55,399 bases of DNA from Deltaproteobacteria bacterium (GTDB lineage: Bacteria > CG2-30-53-67), in the NCBI GenBank assembly GCA_013151235.1, contig JAADIO010000041.1, forward strand, positions 1 to 55,399, written 5' to 3'. Shown here piece by piece: positions 26,200 to 46,814 of this stretch. The position numbers were made by a program, and so were the translations under genes. Under the pieces are notes generated by a model. That model made no database searches, was not told where the DNA came from, and worked only from the letters and a program-made list of their open reading frames with translations. Within the stretch, counting starts at the first letter, position 1, and every line of letters begins with the position of its first letter.

Positions 26200-26241
26200 A
26201 ATACCTTTCCATATATAGAGAGGTTAATCTTCCGGCTCACG

Positions 26242-29106: not shown

Positions 29107-29943
29107 ATGAAGAAAGTGAATATCTTCCATCTCGTTCTGACCACGCTGATCATTCTCTTCGTGGCGGATATCTCCATGAAGATAATCAACAGCCGTCTTG
29201 ATCTAGACCTGCCGGAACAGACCACAAAGAAACCGACCTTCTCCGGGGAAAAAACCGTGAAACCCTTTTCCGCCTTCTCCCGAATCGCCGAACGGAAACT
29301 CTTTGAGAAACCGGCTCCTCCCGATACGGAGAAAAACAACCAAGAGGAGGATCTCTCCGATCATCCGCTGACAAACCTGAAGTTGATTCTCAAGGGGACT
29401 GTCGTCAGCACGAAAGGCAACTCCTTTGCCGTTATCGAGGACGAAAAATTGCGATCCCAGGACCTCTATCATATCAATGACAGCATCAGCAGCGGCGTCA
29501 CGATCGCCTCGATCCTGAACGACCGTGTGGTCATCAATCGGAACGGTAACAAGGAATTGCTCCTCATGTTCCAGGAGGACAAAAAAGGTCGTCATACACC
29601 TGCACGATCCGATCGACAAGCCGCGTCGCCGCTGGTCATCAAAAAATCGGAAATCCGGGAGGCCGTCACCGATCTGCGCTCCATCATGCGGGATGTGCGT
29701 ATCATTCCTCACTTCGCATCGGGGAAACGGGACGGATTCACCGTGACTTATGTCCGGAGGGGAAGCCGGCTCGCGGAACTCGGCCTGCTCCGAAACGACA
29801 TTATCAAGGACATCAACGGTACCCCGGCCGGCAATTTCAAGAACATCTTCGAGATCTTCAATAAATACGCCGATTCGGACAGTCTGGATCTCGGGATTGA
29901 ACGAAATAATGAATACATGAACATCAGTTACACACTGGAATAA
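29107..29943 (+). CDS. gspC: Type II secretion protein C (HR + PDZ)
   Basis: N-terminal TM, LKLILKGTVV..AVIED, PDZ-like LGLLRNDIIKDING. First gene of the gsp operon. Confidence 0.85.
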   Translation: MKKVNIFHLVLTTLIILFVADISMKIINSRLDLDLPEQTTKKPTFSGEKTVKPFSAFSRIAERKLFEKPAPPDTEKNNQEEDLSDHPLTNLKLILKGTVVSTKGNSFAVIEDEKLRSQDLYHINDSISSGVTIASILNDRVVINRNGNKELLLMFQEDKKGRHTPARSDRQAASPLVIKKSEIREAVTDLRSIMRDVRIIPHFASGKRDGFTVTYVRRGSRLAELGLLRNDIIKDINGTPAGNFKNIFEIFNKYADSDSLDLGIERNNEYMNISYTLE

Positions 29944-30009: not shown

Positions 30010-32205
30010 ATGAACTTAAAAGGGACAAGAACTTTTTTCTACACGGTTCTGTTGGTCAGCATGATAATCCTCCCATGGGTCCGGACTCCGGTTGTCTCGG
30101 CCGAAGAACTGATCACCATGAATTTCGAAGATGCCGATATACGGATTCTGATCAAATTTATCAGTGAAATCACCCAGAAAAACTTTATTATCGACGACAA
30201 AGTCAAGGGGAAGGTGACCATCATCTCGCCGGAGAAGGTAACCATCCCCGAGGCCTACAACGTCTTCGAATCCATTCTGGATCTGAAGGGATTCACCCTG
30301 ATCCCTGCGGGTCAGGTCATCAAAATCGTCCCCAGTTCCGAGGCCAAGCAGCGGGGCATTCAAACGATTGTAGGCAAGGTTTCCGATCTCGGCGACCGGA
30401 AGGATGAATTCGTTACCCGGATCACCCGGCTGCGGTACGTCAATGCCGATGAGATTGCGACCCTGATTCGTCCCCTCTTCTCCAAGTACGGGAATCTCAT
30501 CCCCTACAAGGAGACGAACACTTTGATCATGACCGACATCAAATCGAACCTGCACCGGATCATGTCCATCATCAATCAACTCGATGTCAAGGGATACCAT
30601 GCAGAGCTCTACGTCATTCCCCTGCATTATGCCTCGGTCAGAACAATCTCGGACCATCTGAACAAGATTCTTGAACAGGGAGGAGCGGGTCTTCGGACCT
30701 CCTCGATTCGCAGGGTCCCTAACCGGCGCCGAAGGTCATTGACCGCGGGGACGGCATCATCCGTCTCGGGCGTCTCCACCTCGGCCAAGATTATCTCCGA
30801 CGAACGGACCAACTCCCTGATCGTCCTGGCCACGAAGAACGACTACGAAACCATTACCAAGCTCGTCGAAAGACTTGATGTCAAAGCCCCCTCCGGAACG
30901 GGACGGGTCAACATCTACTATCTTCAGAACGCCATCGCCGAAGAGGTCGTTGCCGTTCTCAACAAATTCATCACCGGCATCAATGCAGAAAAACAGAAAA
31001 AGGGAGGCCGGGGAGGCACCCGGCTTCCCAGCGAAACGGATATCAAAATCGTTGCCGACAAGGCGACCAATTCCCTCATCATTGATGCCAACCCCCAGGA
31101 TTACAAACAGATCAAGGACGTCATCGAGAAGCTCGACATTCCTCGTGCCCAGGTCCTGATCGAGGCCCTGATCATGGAGGTGCGGGGGAATGACACGATC
31201 TCCGTCGGTGTCGACTGGGAGACCCTTGGCGGGAAGATCGGGAAAGACGACTCCATTGATCGCCTTGGTTTCGGCGGCTCCATGGTGCAGGGAGATCTGG
31301 GGACAACGATCGCCGCTATTAATGCGGGAACCGCTCCTCCGCTGACCGGATTCAACCTCGGGGTCTTCGGAAATTTTATCGAATTCAACGGTCAGAAATT
31401 TCCTACGATCTCCGCCCTGATCAAGGCCGTGGCCAGCCGGTCCGATACGGATATCCTCTCAACCCCCCAGATCCTGACCATGGACAACGAGGAGGCAGAG
31501 ATCAAGGTCGGCGAGAACCGCCCCTTCCTGACCCAGGCCCGGACCGGCGGACAGGGTGTTAATGATGTTTTCCAGACATTCGACTTCCGCGATGTCGGCG
31601 TCACCATGAAGGTGACCCCCCACATCAGCCAGAATGGTTTCGTCCGGTTGAAGCTTTTCCAGGAAATCTCCAACGTCAATGCCCAGGCCACGGAAGGGAC
31701 GGGCGCCACGGCACCGGTCACGACGAAACGGTCCGCCGATACAACCGTTACGGTTCAGAACGGCCACACGATCGTTATCGGCGGGCTGATCGGGAATGAT
31801 GTCACGCAAACGGAGAGCAAGGTCCCCTGTCTGGGCGACCTGCCCTGGATCAAGTATCTCTTTCGTTCGACACGCACGGAAAAGACCAAAACAAACCTGA
31901 TGATCTTTCTCACTCCTCACATCATCATGAACCCCACGGAGGCGGCCCAACTTTCCGAATTGAAGGATCACGAGTTTAAAAAGTACCAGAAGAAAGACGC
32001 CCCGATGGAGCCCAGCAAACATTTTTACGGCCCGGAAGGAACCGCACCGAAGGAAAGTACCACACCGGCCCGGAAGGTGGCCGAGCCAACGGACAAAGCT
32101 GTCCTGCACAGGACCCCCCATCCAACCCCTTCCCCGGCACAGACCCGTCCGGAACCCCGGAAGGACCCGACACCGGAAGAAACACTCCCGGAAGGAAGCA
32201 AATGA
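30010..32205 (+). CDS. gspD: Type II secretion secretin D
   Basis: MNFEDADI, NFIIDDKVKGKVTI, DERTNSLIV, QVLIEALIMEV, ILSTPQILTMDNEEAEIKVG, KVPCLGDLP. Pro-rich tail. Confidence 0.96.
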   Translation: MNLKGTRTFFYTVLLVSMIILPWVRTPVVSAEELITMNFEDADIRILIKFISEITQKNFIIDDKVKGKVTIISPEKVTIPEAYNVFESILDLKGFTLIPAGQVIKIVPSSEAKQRGIQTIVGKVSDLGDRKDEFVTRITRLRYVNADEIATLIRPLFSKYGNLIPYKETNTLIMTDIKSNLHRIMSIINQLDVKGYHAELYVIPLHYASVRTISDHLNKILEQGGAGLRTSSIRRVPNRRRRSLTAGTASSVSGVSTSAKIISDERTNSLIVLATKNDYETITKLVERLDVKAPSGTGRVNIYYLQNAIAEEVVAVLNKFITGINAEKQKKGGRGGTRLPSETDIKIVADKATNSLIIDANPQDYKQIKDVIEKLDIPRAQVLIEALIMEVRGNDTISVGVDWETLGGKIGKDDSIDRLGFGGSMVQGDLGTTIAAINAGTAPPLTGFNLGVFGNFIEFNGQKFPTISALIKAVASRSDTDILSTPQILTMDNEEAEIKVGENRPFLTQARTGGQGVNDVFQTFDFRDVGVTMKVTPHISQNGFVRLKLFQEISNVNAQATEGTGATAPVTTKRSADTTVTVQNGHTIVIGGLIGNDVTQTESKVPCLGDLPWIKYLFRSTRTEKTKTNLMIFLTPHIIMNPTEAAQLSELKDHEFKKYQKKDAPMEPSKHFYGPEGTAPKESTTPARKVAEPTDKAVLHRTPHPTPSPAQTRPEPRKDPTPEETLPEGSK

Positions 32206-33749
32206 TGAACCCGCAGAACAAAAGCATCGGGATGCCCCTTTTGAAGAAAATCCCGGAACCTCAGTTGAGCGAAGAGACACTGAATCGAATCCCCCGCAGT
32301 TATCTCAAACGTTTCCTCCTCTTTCCCTTTTTCGAGGACGACAGCGGAGTCCGGGTGGCGATTTCCGACCCGGCGAACATGGCCCCGCTGTACGACCTGG
32401 GCAAATTACTGCTCAAGCATGTCGAACCCTACACAGCCACGGAGGAGGAGATCAACCGGAGCATCAACCTCTACTTCGGAAGTGCCACCGATACGGCCGA
32501 GCGGGTCATCGACGATCTCTCGGGGGAGGAATTCGAAAATATTGCCGAAGAGTTGGAAGAGGTGCAGGATCTCCTCGATGCCGAAACCGAGGCGCCGATC
32601 ATCAAACTGATCAACCTGATCCTCTACCAGGCCGTAGAGTCCCGGGCCAGCGATATCCATCTCGAACCCTATGAAAAGGACATGCTGGTCCGATACCGGA
32701 TCGACGGTGTCCTCTACGAACGGCTCCAGCCTCCGAAAAAATTTCAGTCTGCTCTGATCTCCCGGATCAAGATCATGGCGAACCTCAACATCGCCGAGAA
32801 ACGTCTCCCTCAGGACGGCCGGATCAAGATCAAGATCGCGAACAAAGAAGTCGACATACGGGTCTCTATCATCCCCACCGCCTTCGGGGAACGTGTCGTT
32901 TTGAGGCTCCTGGACAAGAATGCCACGATCTTCGACCTCGAAGATATCGGCCTCGTGGACCGGAACTATAAACTCTTTTCCCGCATGATCCGGAAGAGTC
33001 ACGGCATCATCTTAGTCTCCGGACCGACGGGAAGCGGGAAAAGCACAAGTCTCTACGCCGCGCTGAACAAGATCAATTCCCCCGACAAAAACATCCTCAC
33101 CATCGAGGATCCGATCGAATACCAGATCAAGGGAATCGGACAGATCCAGGCCAATCCGAAGATCGACCTGACCTTTGCCAGGGGACTCCGGTCCATTCTC
33201 CGCCAGGACCCGGACGTCATCATGATCGGAGAAATCCGGGACTTGGAGACGGCGGAAATCGCCATCCAGGCCTCACTGACAGGACATCTTGTCTTTTCCA
33301 CACTCCACACCAACGATGCCGCCGGAGCGATCACCCGGTTGACCGATATGGGGATCGAGCCCTTTCTCGTTTCCTCCTCAATTCTCGGGATCATGGCCCA
33401 GCGCCTGGTCCGGGTGATCTGCCCGATCTGTAAAGTCTCCTACAAACCGACCCGGGCCGAATTAGAGGAGCTGGGCCTGGATCCGGATCGTGTGAAAAAT
33501 CCGGTTTTTTCACACGGAAAAGGATGCGATCAATGCCTTGAAACCGGATATCACGGAAGGACCGGGATCTATGAACTGATGGTGGCAAACGACAACATCA
33601 ACAAACTAATTATGCAGAATGCAGACTCAAACCGGATCAAGGAAAAATCGGTTCAAAACGGAATGCGAACCCTTCGGGAAGACGGCGCCTATAAGGTCCT
33701 GCAAGGGATCACCACCATTGAAGAGGTCCTTCGGGTCACGCAGGAGTAG
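32202..33749 (+). CDS. gspE: Type II secretion ATPase E
   Basis: RASDIHLEP, EKRLPQDGR, GPTGSGKST, LRQDPDVIMIGEIRD, STLHTN, CxxC..CxxC. Confidence 0.96.
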   Translation: MMNPQNKSIGMPLLKKIPEPQLSEETLNRIPRSYLKRFLLFPFFEDDSGVRVAISDPANMAPLYDLGKLLLKHVEPYTATEEEINRSINLYFGSATDTAERVIDDLSGEEFENIAEELEEVQDLLDAETEAPIIKLINLILYQAVESRASDIHLEPYEKDMLVRYRIDGVLYERLQPPKKFQSALISRIKIMANLNIAEKRLPQDGRIKIKIANKEVDIRVSIIPTAFGERVVLRLLDKNATIFDLEDIGLVDRNYKLFSRMIRKSHGIILVSGPTGSGKSTSLYAALNKINSPDKNILTIEDPIEYQIKGIGQIQANPKIDLTFARGLRSILRQDPDVIMIGEIRDLETAEIAIQASLTGHLVFSTLHTNDAAGAITRLTDMGIEPFLVSSSILGIMAQRLVRVICPICKVSYKPTRAELEELGLDPDRVKNPVFSHGKGCDQCLETGYHGRTGIYELMVANDNINKLIMQNADSNRIKEKSVQNGMRTLREDGAYKVLQGITTIEEVLRVTQE

Positions 33750-34251: not shown

Positions 34252-35469
34252 ATGGCAGTCTACGAATACAAAGCCCTCAACAAAAAAGGCAAAACCATTA
34301 CGGGGGTCATTGATGCCGATTCCACCCAGGAGGCACGGAGCAAACTCCGGGAAGCGGAAGTCTTTCTGACCGATCTTTACGAAACAACCGCCGTCCAGGG
34401 AAAAAAGAGTTCCGCCAACATCGTCCTTTTTGCTCGAATCCGCCCCATTGAGATCTCGGTCATGATCCGGCAGATCTCCACGTTACTCAACGCGGGGATC
34501 CCCTTAGTGGAAACTCTGTCGGCGGTGATTGAACAGATCGACAATAAGGGCTTGCAAAAAATCATGTCCCAGGTCCGGGAATCAGTCCGGGAAGGAATGA
34601 GTTTTGCCGATGCCCTGTCCCGTCATCCCCGTGCCTTCTCATCATTGATGGTGAATATGATCCGCTCCGGCGAGAGCAGTGGCTCTCTGGACATTGTCTT
34701 GCTCCGGCTGGCCGATTTTCTGGAACAGCAGGTCGAGCTGAAACGGAAGGTCGGATCGGCATTGATCTACCCGGCGGTGACCATCTCGATTGCCCTGATC
34801 GTCCTGCTCTTTCTCCTCATCTATGTCGTCCCGTCGGTGACGCAGATTTTCGCCGACATGAAGCAAACCCTGCCGTTGCCTACGGCAATCCTCATTGTCA
34901 TCAGCCGTTTTACCCAGAACTACTGGTGGCTTTTCCTTTTTCTGATTCTTGCCGTCTTTTCCGGCATGAAAGCCTATACCCGGACCGAGCAGGGACGGAT
35001 CCATTTCGATCGTCTCAAGTTAAAAATGCCTCTCTTCGGATCTCTCGTCCGCAAGATCGCCATCACCCGTTTTTCCCGGACCCTGGGGACACTTCTGAAA
35101 AACGGAGTCCCCCTGCTGAACGCGCTGGACATCGTCAAGAACGTCGTCGGAAACAAGATCCTGGAGCAAACCATTGAAGATGCCCGAACCCATATCGGGG
35201 AAGGATCCACGATTCATGAGCCCTTAAAACGGAGCGGTGTCTTCCCTCCGATTGTCATCCACATGATCTTCGTAGGAGAAAAGAGCGGCACACTGGAGGA
35301 GATGCTGAACAAAGTGGCCGACACCACGGACAATGAGATCAACTCCACCATCAGCACTCTGACCTCCCTGTTGGAACCGATTATGATCGTCGGACTGGCG
35401 CTGGTGGTGGGCTTTATCGTCCTCTCGATTCTGCTGCCGATCTTTGAAATCAATCAATTGATCCGATAA
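34252..35469 (+). CDS. gspF: Type II secretion inner-membrane platform protein F
   Basis: MAVYEYKAL, RQISTLLNAGIPL, GESSGSLD, ALIYP, GEKSGTLEEML, LLEP. Confidence 0.96.
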   Translation: MAVYEYKALNKKGKTITGVIDADSTQEARSKLREAEVFLTDLYETTAVQGKKSSANIVLFARIRPIEISVMIRQISTLLNAGIPLVETLSAVIEQIDNKGLQKIMSQVRESVREGMSFADALSRHPRAFSSLMVNMIRSGESSGSLDIVLLRLADFLEQQVELKRKVGSALIYPAVTISIALIVLLFLLIYVVPSVTQIFADMKQTLPLPTAILIVISRFTQNYWWLFLFLILAVFSGMKAYTRTEQGRIHFDRLKLKMPLFGSLVRKIAITRFSRTLGTLLKNGVPLLNALDIVKNVVGNKILEQTIEDARTHIGEGSTIHEPLKRSGVFPPIVIHMIFVGEKSGTLEEMLNKVADTTDNEINSTISTLTSLLEPIMIVGLALVVGFIVLSILLPIFEINQLIR

Positions 35470-35487
35470 TGAAACAGGAGGTTGCCC

Positions 35488-35922
35488 ATGCTCGACCGGA
35501 AAGGCTTTACCTTAATCGAACTGTTAGTGGTCCTGGTCATTCTTTCGATCCTGGCCACCATTATCGGTCCCAAACTCTTCGGCCGGACGGAAGAGGCCCG
35601 GAGGACCGCCGCTATGGTGCAGATCCGGAATATTGAAAGCGCACTGGCCCTTTATGAACGGGACAACGGAAGTTTTCCCACGACTGAACAGGGCCTCAAA
35701 GCCCTTGTTGAAAAACCGTCGGGCGATCCGGTCCCCCCAAACTGGCACGAGGGAGGATACCTGGACAAAGGGAAGGTCCCGCTCGACCCTTGGCACAATC
35801 CCTATGTCTACCTCTCCCCCGGTGTCCACAGCAAGGAATATGATCTGGAATCCTATGGGGCGGATGGGGAAGACGGCGGCGAAGGGAAGTATGCGGATAT
35901 CGAAAGCTGGAACCTGGAATAA
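35488..35922 (+). CDS. gspG: Major pseudopilin G
   Basis: KGFTLIELLVV, FPTTEQGLKALV, DPWHNPYVY, SYGADG. AGGAGG RBS before ATG 35488. Confidence 0.96.
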   Translation: MLDRKGFTLIELLVVLVILSILATIIGPKLFGRTEEARRTAAMVQIRNIESALALYERDNGSFPTTEQGLKALVEKPSGDPVPPNWHEGGYLDKGKVPLDPWHNPYVYLSPGVHSKEYDLESYGADGEDGGEGKYADIESWNLE

Positions 35923-36463
35923 GCCGGGGCAAGGGGGCTTCACTCTCCTTGAGTTGATCGTCACCCTTCTGCTGATCACCATCGTCCTGAGTTTTACCCT
36001 GCCGAAGATCGGGAATGTCCTTTATTCCACGGACCTCAGGGAGTCGGTGCGGCAATTGCGGGCATTGCTGACCGCGGCCCGAAGCCTGGCCGTCGCGGAA
36101 GGAATCCCGCGACGGATTGTCTGCGATCTTTCCAAAGGAGAAATACATGTTGAACGGGCGGTGTACCACAAAGAAGGCGAAATCGAAACAGTCCGCTACG
36201 AGATGGATTCATCGATCCTGATCCATCGCTATACCCTTCCCCGCCACGTGAAGATCGAAGACGTGATCACCGAAAGCGGTGACAAAATCACGGAAGGAAC
36301 GGCGACCCTCCGCATCGGGATCAACGGCATGATTTTCGGGAACCGGATCCATCTATTGCAGAAAGAGAAACAGTACACACTGGTGATCAATCCTCTTACG
36401 GGGAGAATCACTGTCGAACAAGGTTATACGGAGGAAACCCGGAATGCCGACAACGGGGAATAG
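35891..36463 (+). CDS. gspH: Minor pseudopilin H
   Basis: GGFTLLELIV prepilin motif. Start trimmed to ATG 35891, overlapping the gspG end. Confidence 0.85.
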   Translation: MRISKAGTWNKPGQGGFTLLELIVTLLLITIVLSFTLPKIGNVLYSTDLRESVRQLRALLTAARSLAVAEGIPRRIVCDLSKGEIHVERAVYHKEGEIETVRYEMDSSILIHRYTLPRHVKIEDVITESGDKITEGTATLRIGINGMIFGNRIHLLQKEKQYTLVINPLTGRITVEQGYTEETRNADNGE

Positions 36464-36842
36464 AGGTTTTACCCTGATGGAGGTCATTTTCGCCGTTGCC
36501 ATCATGGGAATCTCTCTCGTCACGCTCCTGAACCTGCAGATCAAGACGATTCGGCTGCAACAGGTCACCAACCATACCGAGGAAGCCACCCTCCTGGCCC
36601 AGGAAATGATGACCCGAAAGATGCTCGAAATTACGAGCAGCCCGTCCATGCCGCAATATTTCGATGAAGGGGATTTTGAGAAAGAGGAGTTTGCATCCTA
36701 TCACTGGGAATATACTCTGTCGGCCACGGATGCCGATTCCCTCTTCCGGATCGACCTGACCGTCTTCTGGAATCCGGAAGACAAGAAAAACAACTCCGTT
36801 ACGCTTTCCAGTTTTGTCACGATGAAGGCGGCCGGCCTATGA
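36444..36842 (+). CDS. gspI: Minor pseudopilin I
   Basis: RGFTLMEVIFAVAI; 132 aa; position in the operon. Confidence 0.88.
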   Translation: MPTTGNRGFTLMEVIFAVAIMGISLVTLLNLQIKTIRLQQVTNHTEEATLLAQEMMTRKMLEITSSPSMPQYFDEGDFEKEEFASYHWEYTLSATDADSLFRIDLTVFWNPEDKKNNSVTLSSFVTMKAAGL

Positions 36843-37498
36843 TCCTTTACCGTTCCGAAAAGGGCCTGACCCTGTTAGAGGTTCTTGTTGCGATCGTGAT
36901 CCTCTCAATTATCCTGGGTGTGATCTATTCCTCTTTCCTGGGAACGACGAGAACGGCCTCGATTCTGGAATCGAGTGAAGATGCCTACCAGACGGCACAG
37001 GCATTCTTCGATATGCTCTCCCGTGAACTACGCGGCACTTATTACCGAAAAGGAAGGACGCCGGCCGGACTCCTCGGTATCGCCTCGGAATCGAGAGAAA
37101 ACCCGACGGATGCCGTCTATTTCCTGACCACCTCGCTGGGGCGGCGTACTCCGAAGAGTACCGACGGAACCCTCGCGGAGGTCGGCTATTTCTTTGATGT
37201 GGACGAGCTGAGCAACACCCGGCATCTGATTAAAAGTATCGACATGACCCCCGACATGGACCTTCGGAAAGGAGGAAAGTTTTATCCTTTAACGGACCGG
37301 GTGAAAAGTCTGAAATTCTCTTATTTCCAGGCCCGGGAGAACAAGTGGTTTGACCAATGGAAGAAACCCGATCTGCCCGACCTGATCCGCGTGGAGCTGA
37401 CCGTCCTCGACGATCAGGACCACCCGATTTATTTTCGGACCACCCTCCAGCCGATGCTGCGCCGGGGTAAAAAAATCAGGGGGAACCCGGTCCCATGA
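36839..37498 (+). CDS. gspJ: Minor pseudopilin J
   Basis: KGLTLLEVLVAIVI; W..QW...LPDLIRVEL. Confidence 0.88.
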   Translation: MILYRSEKGLTLLEVLVAIVILSIILGVIYSSFLGTTRTASILESSEDAYQTAQAFFDMLSRELRGTYYRKGRTPAGLLGIASESRENPTDAVYFLTTSLGRRTPKSTDGTLAEVGYFFDVDELSNTRHLIKSIDMTPDMDLRKGGKFYPLTDRVKSLKFSYFQARENKWFDQWKKPDLPDLIRVELTVLDDQDHPIYFRTTLQPMLRRGKKIRGNPVP

Positions 37499-38481
37499 AA
37501 ACAGACCACGTCAGAGAAGGCAGGCGGCATAATGAGCGGGGGATCGCCCTGATCCTCGTGCTGCTCGTCGTCGGGGCACTTTCCGCTCTGCTTCTTGACC
37601 TGAACTATACCACCCGGATCAACCTCCATCTCGCTGACAATTTCCGGGACCAGACCCGTGCCTCCTTCCTGGCACGGGGAACCCTGGAGGCGGCCATCGC
37701 CCTGTTGCTGGCCGACGAGAACTTTGACTTCGACGATCCCGACAGCCCAGAGGATGCTATTTGGGCCACTCCCAACGTCCACGAAGAAGCAGGAGGCACC
37801 ATCCGGATCCAAATGGCCATTCACGATGAAGATGGAAAGATCTCCATCAACGATACGAAGAATCTTTTCCTGAAGAACTCCACTCAGGCGGGTCGGCTTC
37901 CCGGGCTCGCGCAGAACATCCAGTCCGTCCTTACACTGGACGACACCGTCATGGATTCGATCCAGGACTGGATTGACAGCGATAACGTGGTATTCAATTT
38001 CGGCGCCGAAAACGACTATTATCAATCACTTGATCCACCCTACGAGATCCGTAACGGAGAGATCTGGGACCTGACGGAGCTTTTCCGGATCCAGGGGATC
38101 GATGACCGTATTTATTACGGGGGCACCGAGGAAGTCCCCGTGGGACTCTCCGACATCTTCACCGATATCGGCGGGGATGACAAACCACGGAAGATCAATG
38201 TCAACACGGCTCCCGATGAAGTACTGGTCGCTCTCGGCGATCGATCCTTTGCCGATGAAGTCGAAGCGGCACGACCGATTGAGTCCTCGGCCGACCTGAA
38301 GGGACTCAACGGATATAGTGCCCTCCCCGAAAACATCCGGAAGATGCTCGATGTAAAATCGACCTACTTTTCCGTCGACACCAAAGTCAAAGTCAACCGG
38401 ATTGTGAAATCCGTTTATGCAGTCTTGAAAAGAATCCCAAATAATGATACGGTAAACATCGTCTACTGGCGCGAGGAGTAA
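37495..38481 (+). CDS. gspK: Minor pseudopilin K
   Basis: RGIALILVL (no E5), DEDGKISIN, IQDWIDSD, GAENDYY, INVNTAP. Confidence 0.92.
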   Translation: MKTDHVREGRRHNERGIALILVLLVVGALSALLLDLNYTTRINLHLADNFRDQTRASFLARGTLEAAIALLLADENFDFDDPDSPEDAIWATPNVHEEAGGTIRIQMAIHDEDGKISINDTKNLFLKNSTQAGRLPGLAQNIQSVLTLDDTVMDSIQDWIDSDNVVFNFGAENDYYQSLDPPYEIRNGEIWDLTELFRIQGIDDRIYYGGTEEVPVGLSDIFTDIGGDDKPRKINVNTAPDEVLVALGDRSFADEVEAARPIESSADLKGLNGYSALPENIRKMLDVKSTYFSVDTKVKVNRIVKSVYAVLKRIPNNDTVNIVYWREE

Positions 38482-38490
38482 AGAGCGGAT

Positions 38491-40032
38491 ATGTCAAGAA
38501 TCATTACAGCAATTGAAATCTTCCGGGATGCTCTTTACGGTGTCGAGATCGGCGTGCAGCGGAAGCAGGTCGAAATTCTCCGGTTGATTGAGGAACCGTT
38601 GCGGAAAGATGCACTCACGTCGGAGGGGCTTTCGCTCTTCTTCACGGAGCACCAATTACACAAGGAGGAAGTCATTACCTCCGTGTCCGGAGACATGCTC
38701 ATCACACGAAGAGTCTCCGTTCCGTTCCGGGATCGGGGCAGGATCAACAAGATCCTCCCCTTCGAACTGGAACCTCTCGTTCCCTTCCCCCTTTCCGAGC
38801 TGGAGATCTGTTACCGGGTCCTGGAGCAGGATCGCGACCGAAGCAACCTCCTGGTCTACAGCCTCCCGAAGAAGGTGCTGGATCAACGTTCGTCACTCTT
38901 TGCCGATGCCGGAATTCCCCTTCAAATGATCGGGGTTTCTTCCCTGGCGGCGGCAAATGCACTCTTTACCCTCAAACAGATCGAAAAAAGCAAGACCATC
39001 CTCCACCTTCATGTCCTTCCCGATTTCAGCATCCTCTCCATCTACCGGATGGGCGTGTTGCAACACTTCGTAAATCTCACTTGGGGAGGGCAGGATCTCA
39101 CAAACAAGCTGACGTCCATTACCGGACTGAATGTGGAGACACTTCCGGAACGTTTTTCCTCCCTCACCCCGACGGAAAAAGATGAAATCACCCGTGCCCT
39201 CTCGGGGGGGGAAACCGAAATCGCCTCACAGATACGGAAAGAGTGTAACCTTTACCTGATGCAGCCACAAACGAGCATGCCCGAGACCCTTTATGTGACG
39301 GGATACACTACCGGACTTCCGCTCCTCATTCCGCTCCTTGAGAAAGCCGTTGAGGTGCGGGCCAAAACCCCCGATCCTTTGCCTGCATTGAAACATTCCC
39401 TTGCGGAAGGAACCCCGGGGACGGGTCTGCCGGCCCCTCTCGGTCTGGCTTTCATGTGGATGGGGAAGGATGCTCTGGGGAGCGTATTCCGCAGACAGAA
39501 AACCTCCTTTTTCTCAAGCATCATAAACTCCAAACAGGAACTGCGCCATGCGCTGATCATTGTGGCCATCCTGATCGTGGGATTTTTCACGGACTTTTTT
39601 GTGGGGATCCAGGCAAAAGAATATCACTATCACCGGCTTCAACAGGAAATGCGCCTACTCTTCCATGAGACATTCCCCGATGTAAAAAATATTGTGAATG
39701 AACTGGAACAGATGAAACTGAAGATGAAGGACCTGGAAAAACAGAATGAGATCTTCAAAACTGTTTTCGGAGAGAAACCTTCCGCCCTGGAGGTTCTGAA
39801 TGAGCTGAGTGTCCGGATCCCCAAAGACATTGAACTTGCCATCACGGATTTCACCATTGACGACAAATCGATCCGCTTCACGGGATGGACCGATACCTTC
39901 GAATCGGTGAACAAGATCGAAAAGGAACTCAGAAAGTCAACAATCTTTGTGAATGCCAAGGTCAGCAACGCCAAGGTCGGCAGAAACAAGAGCCGGATCA
40001 ACTTCCAGATATTAATTCCATTCAAGAAATAA
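38491..40032 (+). CDS. gspL: Type II secretion protein L (PilM-like cytoplasmic + PilN-like periplasmic domains)
   Basis: VPFRDRGRINKILPFELEPLVPF, single TM, LEVLNELSVRIP, FESVNKIEKEL. Confidence 0.85.
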   Translation: MSRIITAIEIFRDALYGVEIGVQRKQVEILRLIEEPLRKDALTSEGLSLFFTEHQLHKEEVITSVSGDMLITRRVSVPFRDRGRINKILPFELEPLVPFPLSELEICYRVLEQDRDRSNLLVYSLPKKVLDQRSSLFADAGIPLQMIGVSSLAAANALFTLKQIEKSKTILHLHVLPDFSILSIYRMGVLQHFVNLTWGGQDLTNKLTSITGLNVETLPERFSSLTPTEKDEITRALSGGETEIASQIRKECNLYLMQPQTSMPETLYVTGYTTGLPLLIPLLEKAVEVRAKTPDPLPALKHSLAEGTPGTGLPAPLGLAFMWMGKDALGSVFRRQKTSFFSSIINSKQELRHALIIVAILIVGFFTDFFVGIQAKEYHYHRLQQEMRLLFHETFPDVKNIVNELEQMKLKMKDLEKQNEIFKTVFGEKPSALEVLNELSVRIPKDIELAITDFTIDDKSIRFTGWTDTFESVNKIEKELRKSTIFVNAKVSNAKVGRNKSRINFQILIPFKK

Positions 40033-40090: not shown

Positions 40091-40852
40091 ATGAAGGTAA
40101 TTTCCATCATCAACCAGAAAGGAGGGATTGGAAAGACCACAACGGCCATCAATCTCTCGGCTTGTCTTGCGGAATTGGAGCAACGGGTACTCCTGATCGA
40201 TATGGACGCCCAGGCCAACGCCACAATCGGGCTGGATATCGATCCGGCCCGGTGCCGGAAGACCGTATACGATCTTCTGATCAACGAAGAAACGCCCTTC
40301 GAGGATGTCCGCTGCAAGACGATCCTGGATCGACTCGATCTCCTTCCGGGGCACATGGACTTGGCCGGTTGCGACGTTCAACTCGCACAAAGCACCAATC
40401 GTCCTTATCGGCTCGGCCATGCCCTGCAACGGGTGGACGGGGAATATGACTATACCATTATCGACTGCCCTCCCTCCCTCGGGGTGCTCAGTTTGAATGC
40501 CCTTCTGGCGTCGAGCGACATCATTATCCCGACCGAGGCAAAGTATTATGCAACCAAAGGATTCGACATGTTGAACAACATGCTGACCACCATCTCCATG
40601 CAATTAGGACACCGCATCCACCTCATGGGGATTCTGATTACCATGTTTGACAAAAGAACGACCCTGAACCGCATTTTTTATGAACAGATTCATGAATATT
40701 TCGGGGACAAGGTTTTCAAGACACGAATCCCGAGAAACATCACCCTGAGCGAAGCGGAAGTGTACCGAAAACCAATCATCCGATATGCCGCCAATTCGAC
40801 AGGAGCGAAGCACTATCGCCGTTTGGCCATTGAAGTCCTTTTCCATGAATAA
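40091..40852 (+). CDS. parA: Orphan ParA/Soj-family ATPase inside the gsp operon
   Basis: Deviant Walker A NQKGGIGKTT, LLIDMDAQANAT, IIDCPPSLG, TMFDKRT, IPRNITLSEA. No parB adjacent. Confidence 0.92.
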   Translation: MKVISIINQKGGIGKTTTAINLSACLAELEQRVLLIDMDAQANATIGLDIDPARCRKTVYDLLINEETPFEDVRCKTILDRLDLLPGHMDLAGCDVQLAQSTNRPYRLGHALQRVDGEYDYTIIDCPPSLGVLSLNALLASSDIIIPTEAKYYATKGFDMLNNMLTTISMQLGHRIHLMGILITMFDKRTTLNRIFYEQIHEYFGDKVFKTRIPRNITLSEAEVYRKPIIRYAANSTGAKHYRRLAIEVLFHE

Positions 40853-40897
40853 CGGCAACCGGGCCGTCCGGTAAAACATTCAGAAAGTGATCTATCC

Positions 40898-41851
40898 ATG
40901 CCAGACAAAGAAGACGAGCTTCGGAAAAAGACGAAAGAAAATCTTGACCCGAAAGGATGGGAGGCCCTTCTGGAGGGCGTTCCTCCAATCAACACACAAG
41001 CCTCTACACCCGACCCGGCCCCGTCCTCTTCGGAGCGGAAAGAGCATGTTCTCCGGGTCACGGATGAAACCGGTTTGACATCGGAGCAGACCCTCGCTGC
41101 GGAACCCGTTATCCCACCGGAAAAGACATCGGGCAAAGGTGGCGCCGGCGATCATGGGAAGGACCTATCCCGCGGGGAGAGTTCCTCAATGGAAGCGGAG
41201 GAAACGAAGGAGCATCTACAGCTCCCCCCCCCGGACCCGGAAATCAACAAGAAGAATCGATTCTCCCTTCTTGCGGACCGGATCCGCAAATTTCCTCAGA
41301 TCCGGAAGGCCCTGCAGTATTATCAGCACATCAGCCTTCGGGAACAGCGAATGGTGCTGGCCTCGATCCTTTTTCTCATTCTCATCTTTGTCTATTCCTT
41401 GATCCTGGGGCCTCTTATGGATCGCAATGCCCTGCTCAATCGGAAAATTAAAAAAAAGAGGGAAGAGATCACGGAGATGGTTCGTCTGCGATCCTCGGTC
41501 GTGCAGGATCGGGGCGGAATGGACCGGATCCGGAAGATCATCGAACAGCGGGGCAAGGATTTTTCCGTTTTTGCCTACCTGGAACAGTTGGCCACAAAAG
41601 CGGAGATGAAAGACAAGATCATCTACATCAAACCACAGCGGGAAACCCCGGTCGGTCGCTTCAAGGAATCCCTGGTCCAGATCAAACTCGAAAAGATCGG
41701 AATGGAAGCGTTGACGCGATATCTTTATCAGATCGAAACCTCGGAAGACCTTCTCTACATCAAAAACCTTCGGATGAAACAGGGCAAAGAAAGGGGGCAA
41801 ACCGGACTGAACGTCACGCTCTCCGTGGGAACCCTGATTCTGGGAAGCTGA
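40898..41851 (+). CDS. gspM: Type II secretion protein M with a ~130-aa N-terminal extension
   Basis: SLREQRMV + TM, coiled coil, LEQLATKA..IKPQ, LTRYLYQIE..LYIKNLRM (GspM/PilO-like), preceded by a charged/Pro-rich disordered region. Confidence 0.82.
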   Translation: MPDKEDELRKKTKENLDPKGWEALLEGVPPINTQASTPDPAPSSSERKEHVLRVTDETGLTSEQTLAAEPVIPPEKTSGKGGAGDHGKDLSRGESSSMEAEETKEHLQLPPPDPEINKKNRFSLLADRIRKFPQIRKALQYYQHISLREQRMVLASILFLILIFVYSLILGPLMDRNALLNRKIKKKREEITEMVRLRSSVVQDRGGMDRIRKIIEQRGKDFSVFAYLEQLATKAEMKDKIIYIKPQRETPVGRFKESLVQIKLEKIGMEALTRYLYQIETSEDLLYIKNLRMKQGKERGQTGLNVTLSVGTLILGS

Positions 41852-41924: not shown

Positions 41925-41947
41925 ATGACAGTTTTACGACCTCCTTC

Positions 41948-44900
41948 CTACCAGCGCACCTTGCTTCCCTTCCTGCGAAGCAGAGCCAACACAAAGACCG
42001 GAAGGAGAAGCAGAACCACCGCAGGCAGGCCCTCCATCGGGGTGACCGGTGAAGAGGAAAGGGCACACCCCCCCCCNNNNNNNNNCACCGCCACTGCTGC
42101 TGGAGGAACTGGAACCGGACGATGAACTGGAACCGGAACCGGACGACGAACTGGAACCGGCCGAACCGTTCCCCACCTCAAAGGGAGAGAGGCTGGTCAC
42201 ATCAGCGGTGATCGTATGATTGGTGGTGTCAACACTCCTGTTTGTATCCTCAGCGACCCATTCACCACCGGTATAGTGATAGATATGGAGATCACTGGGA
42301 TCAGTAATGGAACTGCTGTACTGCAGTTGGATCGTCACCGACGCCCCGGAAGCAATCGAGTCCGCACTCGGAAGATCAATGTCATAAAGACCACTGGCAG
42401 CCGTGGCATAAGACGGAAGATCCGGCGTCGATTCCGCCAGGAGCGATTCGCCTCGCAGACCGTTCGTACTCAAGCCGTTACTGGACAGAGTGGAGTCGTC
42501 CTTCTGCAAAGTCACCGTCGTAACACCGTCCCCTTCGCCGTCGGTAATGTCACCCGGTTCGAAGAAGACCTTCGACTTGTCCCCCTGCCCCATGCCGACG
42601 GATCCGCCGAGGAGGGCTTCCACCGTCCCCTCATTGAAGGCCGAGGCATTCATGTCGTACTGGAAGGTCTTGGTAATGACGGTATTATCCTTGCCGTAAT
42701 GGGCGGTAAAGGTCACCGTATAGACCGGATCGATGATCGATGCCGGCGGCGTATAGGTGCCGGTAATTCCCATCTTGTCGGACCCCATGGTCGCAGAGAT
42801 CGACCCCTGATCGACGGAAAGGATGTCATCGGCCGAGGCATCATTCAGATAACTCGTGCTGAAGAAAGCGATGGTAAATGTGCCATCACTGTTTTTCTTG
42901 GCCCGTGCCGTAATAATCGGCGGCGTGTCGGTCAGCACGGCATTGTAGGTATCCCCGCCCTGCACCTTGTCGGGCATGACATGAAGCTCGAAGGGGCCGT
43001 CCTCACTGTCATGCACAAGCAACAGATTGTAACTCTTCCCGGTTTCGAGACCGGGGACGGAATAGGCCGTCACTTCCCGTGTGGCATCGTTCGACGTCAC
43101 ACTTCCGAAGATGATGGTATCCATATCGGCGGAGACTGCAACCACCTGGTTAACTTCGCCCATCGTCGGGTAGGTCCCGTCCTCCTTGACGATCGTCCCG
43201 GAAACCGTTTCTCCTTCCGTCAACTCGATCGTGGAAAGGGTATTGCTCCCTGCCGAGATCGTAATATCCCGAACAATCTTCGTGGTATAACCCATACAGA
43301 AGACCTTGAGATTATACTTCCCGGGAACGATCCCGTCAACACTGAAGGTCGTCGTATCAGAGTCGCTCGGCTCTCCGATGAAATCTATTCCGTCCATCGG
43401 ATCGGAATAGACCTCTCCCTGCTTCTGGAGCAGCAGGTAGGGCGCCGGCATGTCCTCATCCATAAAGGGGACCTTCCAAGGCGAACTGCCGGTCTTGTGG
43501 AGCGTACCGGAGAGGGAAGCATTTGCGACGGGCAGTGCGAAATCTATCCCGGTCAGACCGTTCGTCCCGACCTCCACATTTTTTTTCACCTCACCCCAAT
43601 CGACAGGCGCAAAGTCCATAAAATCGGGGCGGGAACCACCGACCACAGTATAATACTTCACGTTGGGATCGACGCCATAGATGGTGTATGCCCCGTTGGA
43701 ACCGGTTGAAGCACAGGCCCAGGTGGATCCGTCTTTTTCATCGTCCGGCTGCGCACAAACATTGACGTTCCCGACGGCACTGCCCGTTGCCGCCGAAGTG
43801 ACGGTCCCGGAAACGGTCACCCCTTCACGAAGTTTCAGAGTCCCGATATCCACGGTCGCCCCTTCCGTATCCGGCACAACGACACCGGCCTTCCGGATCC
43901 CCACATAGTTCTTGGCACCGTTCTGCTTGAAACCATGCTCTGCCTCAATAGTCACCACATAGGTCCCCGCCGGAAGATTGGCCAGACGGAATTGACCGGT
44001 ATAGGTTCCGTTCCCGTCGGTGGTCTCCTGCCCGCTTGAATCGACGGCAATGAAACGGCTTGTCGACCAGGGGTCGTTCCGGGTCTCTCGCCAGCTCCCT
44101 TCCACCCAGGGATGGGCCTCACAACGGATGGAAATCCCGTCATCCGGGGTGATCGCCTCACCGGTCTCCGCATCAACCAGTTTCCCTTCGATATTTGCAC
44201 CCTTTTTCAGGTCCAGGTTTGCTCCCACCACATCGCTTCCGTTGACAGTGATGCTCTTGCTGGCCACGGTATAGTTCGGTGTCCAGGCCTGCACAACATA
44301 GTCGCCGTCCATGACATGGGGCAGAGTGAAGGAGTAGGTCTTGGTCGCTGTAGCTGGATCTGTAGGATCTGTCCAGAAGTCCTTGGAAAAAACCGGAATA
44401 TGCCGTCCCATCCCCGCTTTCTGCGGATGATGCAGTTCGATATCGGCCACCCAGAAATTAGGATCGGAGTTCTGAGGGATCTCGGGCAAGGTCAACGTAC
44501 CTGTAACAGTATAACCATTGGAAAGAGTAAAATCGATTCCGGTTTTTGCCTCTCCCGCAGAAACGGAAACCATCCGGTCATCGGCCGCCACATCGGGCAG
44601 AAAGGCCTGCTGAAAAACATCACCTCCTGTCGAGTGGTCCGTTAATTGTGTAGGAGGCGAAATATTGTAGGCACCCTTGGCAAGACCGGAGATGGTATAA
44701 GTCCCATCGGAGGCAATCTGCCCCATGTACATGGTAGATCCACCCATCATAGCCATTTTCATCGGGATCGCCATGACGCTCTGCCCCACAAGATCATTGG
44801 CAAAGCTTACCGATCCGGAATATCCCGTCTCCAGACTGACCGTCCCGGAGATCGAGGCACCCGTACTCAGGGTAAAATCCTGTCCCGTTGCAGTCTCCCC

Positions 44901-46814
44901 ATTCATGACGGGAATCCGTGCCGTTTCGGTGCCGAAGTTTCCGTCGGGCATCCCCGGCTGCCCCTGAAGCATCTGGGCTGCATTACTGTATTCATTTACT
45001 TCTACAATATACTCCGACGTCCCCAGTCCCGTCAGGGAGTAAGTCCCATCCGATGCAGGCTGTGTCATCACCGGCTCCTGCCAGTCGCCCCAGCCGGACT
45101 TTGTCGCCTTCACCACGACTTTGGACATCTGGACGCCGCTTCCGGAAATCGTACCGGAAATTGCGCCGGAGAAGGGTGCAAAAGTCAGATTGACTCCGGA
45201 GGTCTGACTGTCGGTCGTGACGGTCGCCGTCAACGGCATGGGGGTCTGTTCGTATCCCTCGCCCAAATCGGAATGAATTTCATAGGTCCCGGGATCGAGA
45301 CCTCCGATGGTGTAGGATACACTCTTGTTCGTCCCTCGGGGCACCTGGACATTGGTCCCGCCCCAGCCGCCATCGGATGATCCGGCATCAATCCAGAGGT
45401 TGATCGGTTGGCTGTAATCATCGCCCCCATAGGTCGCATAGGTTGAAGTATCACCGGCGATGATTACGGTTCCGGTGATGCTCCCCCCCTGACTCATGGT
45501 CAGGTTGCCGAGATTCACATCGGCGCCGCTCGTGACCGTCACATCATTCACGGTCGTCGTTTTATAACCCTGAACACGGACCTCCACCGTATAGGTTCCA
45601 GGCAGAGCCGAACGGATGTCAAAGCTTCCCTGGGTGGCGCCGTTATCAATGGACCCGCCACCCCAAGCCATGGTTCCATCGGTGGTGTGGGCGCTGACAT
45701 CAAGCCACATCTGGCCCCCCGTCGAATTGGTAGTAGGAAGTGTGACCGTTCCGTAGATCCGGCTGGCCTTCGAAAGCGTCAGGTCCTTGCTTCCCCCGCT
45801 CGAATCGACGGTGACCGTTACCTCACTGCTCGAATATCCTTCCGCCTCGGCACGCAGATGATAGGTCTTCTGCCCGGAGGTCGGAGGGGTGATATCCACG
45901 GAATAGGAAGCCGTTTGCGAACCCGCCTGAATCGTGGCATTCCCCCAGGTCCACTCGGAGCCATCGTCCGACCAGGCGTTGATGTTGATCATCAACTGGT
46001 TTTCCGTCCCCCCCCATTGATTGGTGAAAGAAGTAAAGGCTGCCGGAATCGTCACCGTACCTGAGATCTGTACCGAAGGGGAAAGAGAAAAATCGATCCC
46101 GGTGACACTGTTCCCCGATGATACAGAGACATCGTTCGGATAGTTGCCGTTCACATATCCGTTCGCCTTGACATCAACATGATAGCTCCCTGCCTTCAAT
46201 CCGGCCACCGTGTAGGTACCGTCTGAGGCGGTAAAGGTCTGTCCCCATCCGTACTGGGACCCGGCATGGACCTCAGCCCCGGAGATCGGGGTCGTCCCGT
46301 CGGTTTCATAGACTGTTCCCGAGATCGAAAGAGAATCGATCGTAACGGAAAGCGACGTATCAGAGGCCTCATCGTTAGTTGTCGTCCAGTCCCCGTCACC
46401 ATCGGTCATAATCTTGATATTATAGACCCCGTTGGGGAGGACATTCCCGTTATTGTCCCTTCCTTCAAACATGAAATCCATCGTCTCATTCTTATTTATG
46501 AAACCATCCATCGTGGTATCGGAGGTCTTCCAGGAATTCGGATCACTCCAGTCAGGTGGCTCAAAGAGACCGTCTCCGTCCGTGTCGACAATCACCCGGA
46601 AGGAGGCATCGACATCCGACGAGAAATGGATAAAAGACTGGTCGGTATTCCCGTCGTTATCGGGGGTAATGGTAACCGTTGAAAGGCTGCCTGCCGTTCC
46701 GGTATCGATCGTAACACCGGAGAGCACTGCACTTGCAGACCCTGCAAAAGCCAGTAAGAGAAACAGACTAAGAACCTCATGAAACAAAAATTGACCGATT
46801 CTTTTCCACCACAT
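41948..46814 (-). CDS. Large secreted surface protein: FlgD-Ig-like domain, tandem carboxypeptidase-regulatory-like beta-sandwiches, C-terminal Gly-Gly-Cys sorting signal
   Basis: Signal peptide (AGSASA), TITPDNDG..FEGRDNNGNVLPNGVY, repeated ISGTV..G.Y...L..G.Y, and a Ser/Gly linker. After the N gap, the alternative frame reads GGGCALSSSPVTPMEGLPAVVLLLLPVFVLALLRRKGSKVRW* (stop 41948), the likely true end. Confidence 0.82.
42077..42085. other. Assembly gap (9 N) in a poly-Gly-encoding C-run, causing an apparent frameshift
   Basis: N run adjacent to C9. Reading frames on either side are discordant for a sensible C-terminus. Confidence 0.9.

Follow-up and report, generated by a model that had tools for sequence, protein, structure and literature searches.

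What is the gene for a ParA-type ATPase doing inside a type II secretion operon? The question is raised by a contig of 55,399 bases (JAADIO010000041.1, here C22) from a genome deposited as a Deltaproteobacteria bacterium (GCA_013151235.1; 2.62 Mb, 99% complete). We analysed the entire contig and call it the window. Its plus strand carries a complete type II secretion system (T2SS) operon that runs from gspC to gspM with parA included. The original prediction, made from the sequence alone, put parA between gspL and gspM, which the order of the open reading frames (ORFs) and their Pfam matches bear out, and regarded GspM as the adaptor through which ParA spaces or polarises the T2SS. Our answer is that the embedded ParA is probably a dedicated partner of the secretion machine, with the tip of the GspM tail as its ParB-like effector. 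The features on which this answer turns are the following.

40091..40852, plus strand: Soj-type ParA ATPase of 253 amino acids (AAA_31 2.9e-57, CbiA 6.4e-24).
40898..41851, plus strand: gspM, 317 amino acids (Pfam T2SSM 1.3e-09, residues 137-202 only).
40898..40978, plus strand: GspM residues 1-27, a basic N-terminus and ParB-like motif (L16, K19, G20, W21, L24, L25), delimited by conservation and synonymous codons.
40979..41302, plus strand: GspM residues 28-135, a Pro/Ser/Glu-rich linker of variable length with one conserved island.
41303..41851, plus strand: the canonical part of GspM, with juxtamembrane helices, a transmembrane helix and a periplasmic alpha-beta-beta repeat domain (Pfam T2SSM from residue 137).

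The downstream gene has the marks of the GspM family: a T2SSM match of 38.9 bits (cut-off 27.8), an NCBIfam GspM_XpsM match at residues 254-310, one transmembrane helix, a periplasmic alpha-beta-beta repeat and a place after gspL. A typical GspM has a short cytoplasmic N-terminus of a few tens of residues. The protein in the window carries about 135 extra residues before the family match, compared with a GspM of 176-178 amino acids in the sister family, and this agrees with the roughly 130 additional cytoplasmic residues first proposed. An AlphaFold2 model (mean predicted local distance difference test, pLDDT, of 68) places helices at residues 3-15 and 18-25, has pLDDT below 50 for residues 27-53 and 60-113, and shows juxtamembrane helices, a long transmembrane helix and a confident periplasmic domain, with high pLDDT for residues 150-317.

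Could the long GspM be an annotation artefact, with translation beginning at about residue 130-150 and the supposed tail being a spacer? The Shine-Dalgarno-like sequence before position 40898 is weak, and Pfam sees GspM only from residue 137. Comparison with relatives contradicts this explanation, to which we give next to no credence. The reading frame across the tail is open in all nine genomes of the family, and GspM homologues align from residue 1 in 8/8 other family genomes (in genome G003 as two pieces within one open frame). The codons of the peptide differ at synonymous third positions between the nine genomes while the amino acids are unchanged. In addition, the parA stop codon overlaps the gspM ATG in six of the nine, by 8 nucleotides in five and by 4 in one. 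By these signs, the GspM extension is real and translated, and a start downstream of the peptide, which would have undone the original prediction, does not occur.

The best conserved part of the tail is its tip, L-D-P-K-G-W-E-A-L-L-E-G. We counted conservation over 29 homologues with identities down to 42%, leaving out P0029, a fragment of 206 amino acids. Fifteen positions are at least 90% conserved (K4, E5, L8, R9, K10, L16, K19, G20, W21, E22, A23, L24, L25, E26 and G27), and K-G-W-E-A-L-L-E-G is present in 27 of the 29; lack of conservation, the other outcome that would have spoken against the prediction, is thus not what we see. The roughly 90 residues that follow vary in length and sequence, except for a small island. 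This second conserved island, at residues ~50-64 (41045-41089), reads H-x-L-[KR]-V-T-D-E-S-G, with D56, E57 and G59 at least 90% conserved, and is modelled as a low-confidence beta-hairpin.

The long GspM and the embedded ParA are distributed together. The order gspL, parA, long gspM occurs in 8/8 other genomes of the family, in 7/7 species-representative loci and in 3/3 metagenome loci, these being overlapping and related sets; in the metagenome scan more than 588 stretches matched a pattern and three loci were obtained. In the sister family, four of five genomes give a GspM match, and it begins only at query residue 143-145. At these loci (L020-L023) gspM comes straight after gspL and parA is absent, and gspM encodes 176-178 amino acids in the three complete loci, the fourth being cut by a contig end. 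Among 41 genomes, ParA orthologues at 69-90% identity are found only in the nine family genomes, and the next best matches reach at most 47%. A search with tail residues 1-62 on proteins of 174-555 amino acids, among 5.8 billion, gave eight matches, all in the same GspM family; the distribution searches see relatives of the tail by sequence, so that extensions of different sequence are invisible to them. The association of parA within gsp operons with an extended GspM and a conserved motif, proposed as a check on the original prediction, therefore holds within the family, and the sister family lacks both. The phylum to which the window belongs is represented in the genome collection by 14 species-level genomes in two families. 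Public metagenome-assembled genomes of this lineage are labelled ‘uncultured Nitrospirota/Nitrospirae bacterium’ or simply ‘bacterium’.

By its residues, the embedded protein is a Soj-type ParA with intact ATPase motifs. Its closest solved relatives are Myxococcus xanthus ParA (8RAY, 9.6e-62) and Thermus thermophilus Soj. The deviant Walker A motif K-G-G-x-G-K-[ST] is present with its signature lysine, as are the aspartates of Motif 2 and Walker B. In 11 aligned ParAs, K10, G11, G12, G14, K15, T16, D37, D39 and D125 are invariant and N43 is nearly so, and the motif residues line up with D58, D60 and N64 of the M. xanthus protein. Three other assignments were considered and rejected. Against a MinD, the model TIGR01968 gives 45.9 bits with a cut-off of 212.9, and there is no amphipathic C-terminal helix. 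Against TadZ/CpaE, the Walker A strand starts from residue 2, and the 253 amino acids hold no further Pfam domain. Against BcsQ or VirC1, the matches to Pfam CBP_BcsQ (4.3e-14) and VirC1 (1.1e-04) lie far below that to AAA_31, and the NCBIfam models are below cut-off.

The conserved tip of GspM resembles the peptide by which ParB proteins act on ParA. According to the available text of a 2025 study of the M. xanthus proteins (PMC12462528), L11, L15, L18 and I19 of ParB are each required for ParA binding, and ATPase stimulation depends on R13, which touches Y81, E82, D110 and E117 of ParA and is replaced by Lys in about half of chromosomal ParBs. K19, W21, L24 and L25 of GspM are in register with this motif, which makes four of five key positions, and the likeness of KGWEALL to the ParB/Spo0J N-terminal peptide had been pointed out at the start. 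Set against the ParB-type pattern L-G-[RK]-G-L-x-x-L-I, the GspM peptide reads as a variant and not as the canonical sequence. The genome's own ParB starts M-S-R-K-V-L-G-K-G-L-S-A-L-I.

The pairing of a ParA with such a peptide recurs in this genome. There are three Soj-type ParAs per family genome, and in the window's genome the product of the gene after each of them opens with a motif variant: for the chromosomal ParA this is ParB (L-G-K-G-L-S-A-L-I), for a ParA with a CBM48 domain a degenerate MinD-like protein (L-G-R-G-L/M-E-E-I-S), and for the T2SS ParA GspM. A strict motif pattern applied to the first 35 residues matches 3 of 6410 ORFs of at least 100 amino acids, exactly these three partners; the pattern was written after seeing the three cases and hence shows specificity, not discovery. 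A looser pattern gives 19 matches in the genome, mostly hydrophobic leaders.

The second of these pairs lies on contig C9 (locus L005:477-2544). Its ParA, of Soj type and 382 amino acids, ends in a glycogen-binding-type domain (AMPK1_CBM 3.8e-11, CBM_48 2.4e-06), and its partner is a degenerate CbiA/MinD-like protein of 288 amino acids that starts L-G-R-G-M-E-E-I-S. The pair is present in the window's genome and in seven relatives whose locus was retrieved, and it may be a ParA system for carbohydrate-granule cargo.

The binding pocket of ParA for the peptide is largely kept in the T2SS ParA. The pocket was mapped by hand from the M. xanthus alignment, anchored on the D60A of the crystallised construct. 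Y81, E82, D110, V116, L150, L155 and L192 of the M. xanthus protein correspond to Y60, D61, D90, V96, L130, L135 and L172. Three other positions distinguish the paralogues. Position 97 is Q in seven, R in one and L in one of the nine T2SS ParAs, E in 9/9 chromosomal ParAs and K in 8/8 CBM48-ParAs. Position 132 is V or I in the T2SS ParAs as opposed to L in both other groups, and position 167 is T or A as opposed to mostly L (Leu in 7/9 chromosomal ParAs). The smaller residues at 132 and 167, taken with the change from Leu to Trp in the peptide, look like a bump-and-hole adjustment that may keep the systems orthogonal.

These positions bear on whether the GspM peptide instead recruits the chromosomal ParA (Soj), which would tie the machine to the nucleoid or to segregation and leave the embedded ParA to do something else. 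The peptide is close to the genome's own ParB motif (P-K-G-W-E-A-L-L compared with L-G-K-G-L-S-A-L-I), and the chromosomal ParA keeps all the DNA-binding arginines (R at positions 189, 201, 215 and 218 in 9/9) and so would supply a missing matrix. However, the tail and the embedded ParA occur jointly or not at all, and it is V132 and T/A167 of the embedded protein that fit Trp, whereas the chromosomal ParA has Leu132 in 9/9 and Leu167 in 7/9. We consider recruitment of the chromosomal protein unlikely.

Structure prediction points weakly in the same direction as the pocket. Two ParA chains with two ATP, two Mg and GspM residues 1-45, under custom alignments, gave co-folds with a median score of 0.58 (runs of 0.26, 0.63 and 0.58), and the best of three controls scored 0.03. 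Of 80 solved complexes, 58 attain the mark for such co-folds, as do 2 of 110 mismatched pairs, and scores of 0.60 or less belong to only 7 of those 80 and to both of the mismatches that passed. The runs share at least 39% of contacts, with a pLDDT of 46 or more for the partner. Part of the score may come from resemblance to ParA-ParB peptide complexes that are already known. Modelling of the ParA dimer with the GspM N-terminus had been suggested with the original prediction; the outcome is above the controls, and the support that it lends to binding of the peptide is weak.

A different possibility is that the embedded ParA acts on the T2SS without using the tail peptide, by way of GspE or of the PilM-like domain in GspL, for example, and that the tail recruits another factor. 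In its favour, the tail has the second conserved island at residues ~50-64, and TadZ/CpaE and BcsQ work without a ParB-type peptide, as described in the available text of a 2024 review (PMC11407121). Yet the best conserved element of the tail is exactly a ParB-type motif, the same motif opens the partners of both other ParA paralogues, and the co-fold, for its weak part, is above controls. This possibility, too, strikes us as improbable. We return to the T2SS ParA and the tip of GspM as the interacting partners: given their co-occurrence, the overlap of their genes, the purifying selection on the peptide and the match of a ParB motif to a ParA pocket, they appear to be a functional pair. The comparative evidence supports this pairing well, and we hold it with good, though not high, confidence.

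The locus itself shows no sign of a partition system. ParB_N (PF02195) is absent from the contig and matches in the genome only on contigs C10 and C52, and no parS site occurs in the window at up to three mismatches to the consensus. The same consensus finds two identical palindromes on C10, at 46315 and 48912, which serve as a positive control; with up to one mismatch allowed, the genome contains no others. They lie beside the chromosomal parA-parB.

Contig C10, 45352-46095: chromosomal parA, with parB directly downstream.

The absence of both parB and parS from the neighbourhood, as first reported, is thus borne out. Membership in a ParABS system was rejected on these two grounds and on the loss of a DNA-binding arginine, to which we now turn.

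Several observations weigh against a ParA-GspM pair that works in the manner of ParA and ParB. The co-occurrence of ParA and long GspM is a single evolutionary event and not a set of independent gains, because all carriers fall in one family of a 14-genome phylum. The motif is missing in 2 of the 29 homologues, the peptide of P0027 having diverged and the N-terminus of P0030 being garbled. L16, the first of the hydrophobic residues in the GspM motif, is out of register by one, and D-P replaces G. E117 of M. xanthus ParA is called invariant among ParA homologues in the text available to us (PMC12462528), and its equivalent is Q, R or L in the T2SS ParAs. One of the three co-fold runs scored 0.26, and the fold of the partner is uncertain. 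The ParA lacks a membrane-targeting helix; nothing follows its Soj core, and the scores of MinD models fall far short of the cut-off, as the original prediction of no such helix had it. Finally, the DNA-binding patch is eroded. This patch is formed in Bacillus subtilis Soj by R189, K201, R215 and R218, according to a residue table in the part of PMC6393308 that was available. We counted the equivalences by hand from an alignment to T. thermophilus Soj and M. xanthus ParA with that table. In M. xanthus ParA, R238E, at the R218 equivalent, abolishes non-specific DNA binding (PMC12462528, available text). In the embedded ParA orthologues this position is T, S or I in 9/9. The R189 equivalent is basic in 6/9, with S, D and N in the other three, and the K201 equivalent is K or R in 4/9; position 215 is basic in 9/9. 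For the window's own protein, the alignment agrees with the first reading, which saw the R189 equivalent preserved (F-D-K-R-T) and Thr at the R218 equivalent (R-N-I-T-L). Both R189 and R218 are retained throughout the chromosomal and CBM48 paralogues. As far as the aligned residues tell, then, the embedded ParA does not have the usual basic patch for non-specific DNA binding.

The same residues help to judge whether this ParA might be a paralogue for DNA partition that just happens to lie in the operon and plays no part in secretion. It is a genuine ParA of the Soj type that shares 42% identity with the genome's chromosomal ParA, and its best solved relatives are chromosomal ParAs. Its best non-orthologous matches (46-47%) are in distant genomes and exceed the 42% to its own chromosomal counterpart. 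For a partition protein, however, there is no parB or parS on the contig and the DNA arginine is lost in 9/9, while the gene's position is fixed, it overlaps gspM in 6/9, and ParA is absent wherever GspM is short. The protein is also more conserved than its neighbours, at 69-90% identity compared with 50-79% for GspL and 46-71% for GspM, and it likewise stands above GspJ and GspK. We therefore regard a stray partition gene as very unlikely.

If the T2SS ParA and GspM do form a pair, the following cycle can be envisaged by analogy with ParA and ParB. The ATP-bound ParA dimer would expose two symmetric pockets at the dimer interface, and each pocket would take the short helix K19-G-W-E-A-L-L25 from one GspM tail. 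Lys19, the equivalent of ParB R13/K, would stimulate ATP hydrolysis, whereupon the dimer would fall apart and the tails would be released. Several copies of GspM per assembly platform would present their activating peptides as a multivalent brush, each peptide on a flexible linker of ~90 residues, making the machine a ParB-like cargo, as with the ParB complex or a McdB-coated carboxysome. Such a cycle might set where or when T2SS platforms sit or assemble, by spacing, exclusion, clustering or a landmark. We infer binding, ATPase stimulation and any effect on localisation alike. With regard to the adaptor role proposed for GspM in the original prediction, the pairing with ParA is supported, and spacing or polarising of the machine is a conjecture.

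What the ParA would act upon is a separate matter. A version in which it surfs the nucleoid as a ratchet is doubtful, being weakened by the DNA arginine that is non-basic in 9/9, the second that is lost in 3/9 and the lack of a membrane helix. The embedded clade has gained basic residues (K151, K156, K207, R226, K227 and R243) and is much less acidic overall than the chromosomal ParA; the embedded ParA has 29 Lys and Arg residues compared with 19 in the chromosomal protein. Anchoring to the nucleoid through a non-canonical basic surface is conceivable on this basis, and we would lean against it. A ParA that works without a matrix, by ATP-dependent bridging of GspM tails or in a landmark role of the TadZ/BcsQ type, is a tentative proposal to which we would give slightly more room. 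The flexible linker of ~90 residues is easiest to understand if the peptide has to extend away from the membrane. A bolder suggestion, and one we think unlikely as a whole, is that T2SS units repel each other on a ParA-coated surface, the GspM tails being the built-in activator brush, so that they are evenly spaced or kept out of certain zones, and that the genome holds three orthogonal ParA-peptide pairs (chromosome, CBM48-ParA and T2SS) whose specificity comes from positions 97, 132 and 167 matched to Leu or Trp. Were this true, it would be a case of Brownian-ratchet positioning for an envelope-spanning secretion system. In general terms, a function as a spatial or assembly regulator of the T2SS is plausible by analogy.

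Compared with known systems, the pair is by analogy closest to ParA-ParB at the level of peptide and pocket, and to McdAB, ParC/ParP and PomXYZ at the level of the system. With M. xanthus ParA-ParB, as presented in the available text of PMC12462528, it shares a Soj-type ATPase with a deviant Walker A motif and a partner with an N-terminal amphipathic helix, a central Lys or Arg and the pattern G-hydrophobic-x-x-L-hydrophobic. Most of the hydrophobic pocket and of the Tyr/acidic site is retained, and the two symmetric sites of each dimer suggest that peptides are required in pairs. In contrast to ParA-ParB, the partner here is a membrane component of a secretion machine and not a DNA clamp, and there is neither parS nor a CTPase. 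Moreover, Trp replaces Leu, the first Leu is shifted by one, and the equivalents of E117 and R238 are lost.

In the McdAB, ParCP and PomXYZ systems a charged N-terminal region of the partner stimulates the ATPase, and the cargo is multivalent. Our system differs from these in that the adaptor takes the form of an extended core subunit, the cargo is a secretion system that spans the envelope and the usual nucleoid-binding arginine is missing. Like McdA-McdB of carboxysomes, ParC-ParP of chemoreceptor arrays and PomZ-PomXY, it comprises an orphan ParA/MinD-family (A/D) ATPase encoded beside its cargo (PMC11407121, available text). Among type IV filament machines the nearest case is TadZ/CpaE.

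The ATPase in the window is a plain Soj-type ParA of 253 amino acids with canonical motifs and a ParB-type partner peptide. TadZ, by contrast, is a polar landmark that bears a receiver-like domain at its N-terminus and whose nucleotide site is atypical. The two have in common a ParA/MinD-family protein inside an operon of the type IV filament superfamily, to which, at Tad (type IVc) pilus loci, the placing or nucleating of the machine is attributed as a likely role (Perez-Cheeks et al. 2012, as summarised in PMC11407121, available text). BcsQ of cellulose secretion and VirC1, which recruits substrates of the type IV secretion system, are likewise A/D ATPases linked to a secretion apparatus (same source and extent), although they differ in partners and cargo from the embedded ParA system. 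In the text of this 2024 review that was available, TadZ/CpaE, BcsQ and VirC1 are the only secretion-linked ParA/MinD-family proteins that are named. A full-text search, with subscription-only papers and supplements outside its reach, found no literature joining a ParA-type ATPase with the T2SS or GspM.

The rest of the operon, and a large gene that converges on it, comprise the following features.

29107..29943, plus strand: gspC (Pfam T2SSC 2.8e-22, plus a weak PDZ match).
30010..32205, plus strand: gspD, the secretin (Pfam Secretin 3.6e-53, Secretin_N, GspD N0).
32202..33749, plus strand: gspE, the ATPase (Pfam T2SSE 2.3e-149).
34252..35469, plus strand: gspF, the platform protein (Pfam T2SSF 6.2e-68).
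35482..38481, plus strand: pseudopilins gspG, an ORF in the gspH position, gspI, gspJ and gspK (Pfam T2SSG, T2SSI below cut-off, T2SSJ, T2SSK_1st, N_methyl).
38491..40032, plus strand: gspL-type protein of 513 amino acids (Pfam PilM_2 3.3e-11, PilN 2.4e-07; GspL_C weak).
41934..46814, minus strand: giant secreted repeat protein of 1626 amino acids, a candidate cargo (CarboxypepD_reg repeats; convergent with gspM).

The ORF in the gspH position has a prepilin-like leader and no Pfam match. The GspL-type protein is a cytoplasmic PilM-like domain fused to a PilN/GspL_C-like membrane part, and its match to NCBIfam GspL (1.7e-05) is below cut-off. Upstream of the operon, two genes lie on the opposite strand (23869-28767, minus). 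The first encodes a tyrosine-kinase-like protein of 776 amino acids with Wzz/GNVR and AAA_31. The second, of 841 amino acids, joins FG-GAP repeats to OmpA, Poly_export and SLBB domains, a combination that is unusual in a polysaccharide exporter.

After gspM, the window's family has the gene for the convergent giant protein and not the ORF that the sister family has at the gspN position, where gspM is followed by a membrane ORF of 279-282 amino acids (loci L020-L022, about 2028-2876). The giant protein is kept 3′ of gspM in loci L029-L031, L051 and L052. A run of nine N at 42077-42085 shifts its C-terminus out of frame in the window. Orthologues free of N close with a Ser/Gly-rich stretch, then an invariant Cys (G-G-C-A/S-L), then a hydrophobic helix and finally R-R-K, a Cys-type C-terminal sorting tag that recalls MYXO-CTERM-like signals. 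Because it is conserved beside the gsp operon, the giant CarboxypepD_reg protein is likely a surface cargo of the T2SS.

Little is understood about the placing and counting of type II secretion machines in the envelope, and we know of no dedicated nucleotide-driven system for placing them. The secretion machine of this family is likely to possess a switch of its own for placement or assembly; the adaptor is fused to a core subunit, and its motif is near enough to that of ParB for direct work on peptide and ParA. If the pairing is true, it would extend the mechanism of ParB peptide and ParA pocket beyond DNA cargo, and the three ParA-peptide pairs within a genome of 2.6 Mb are a natural experiment on how crosstalk between ParAs is avoided.

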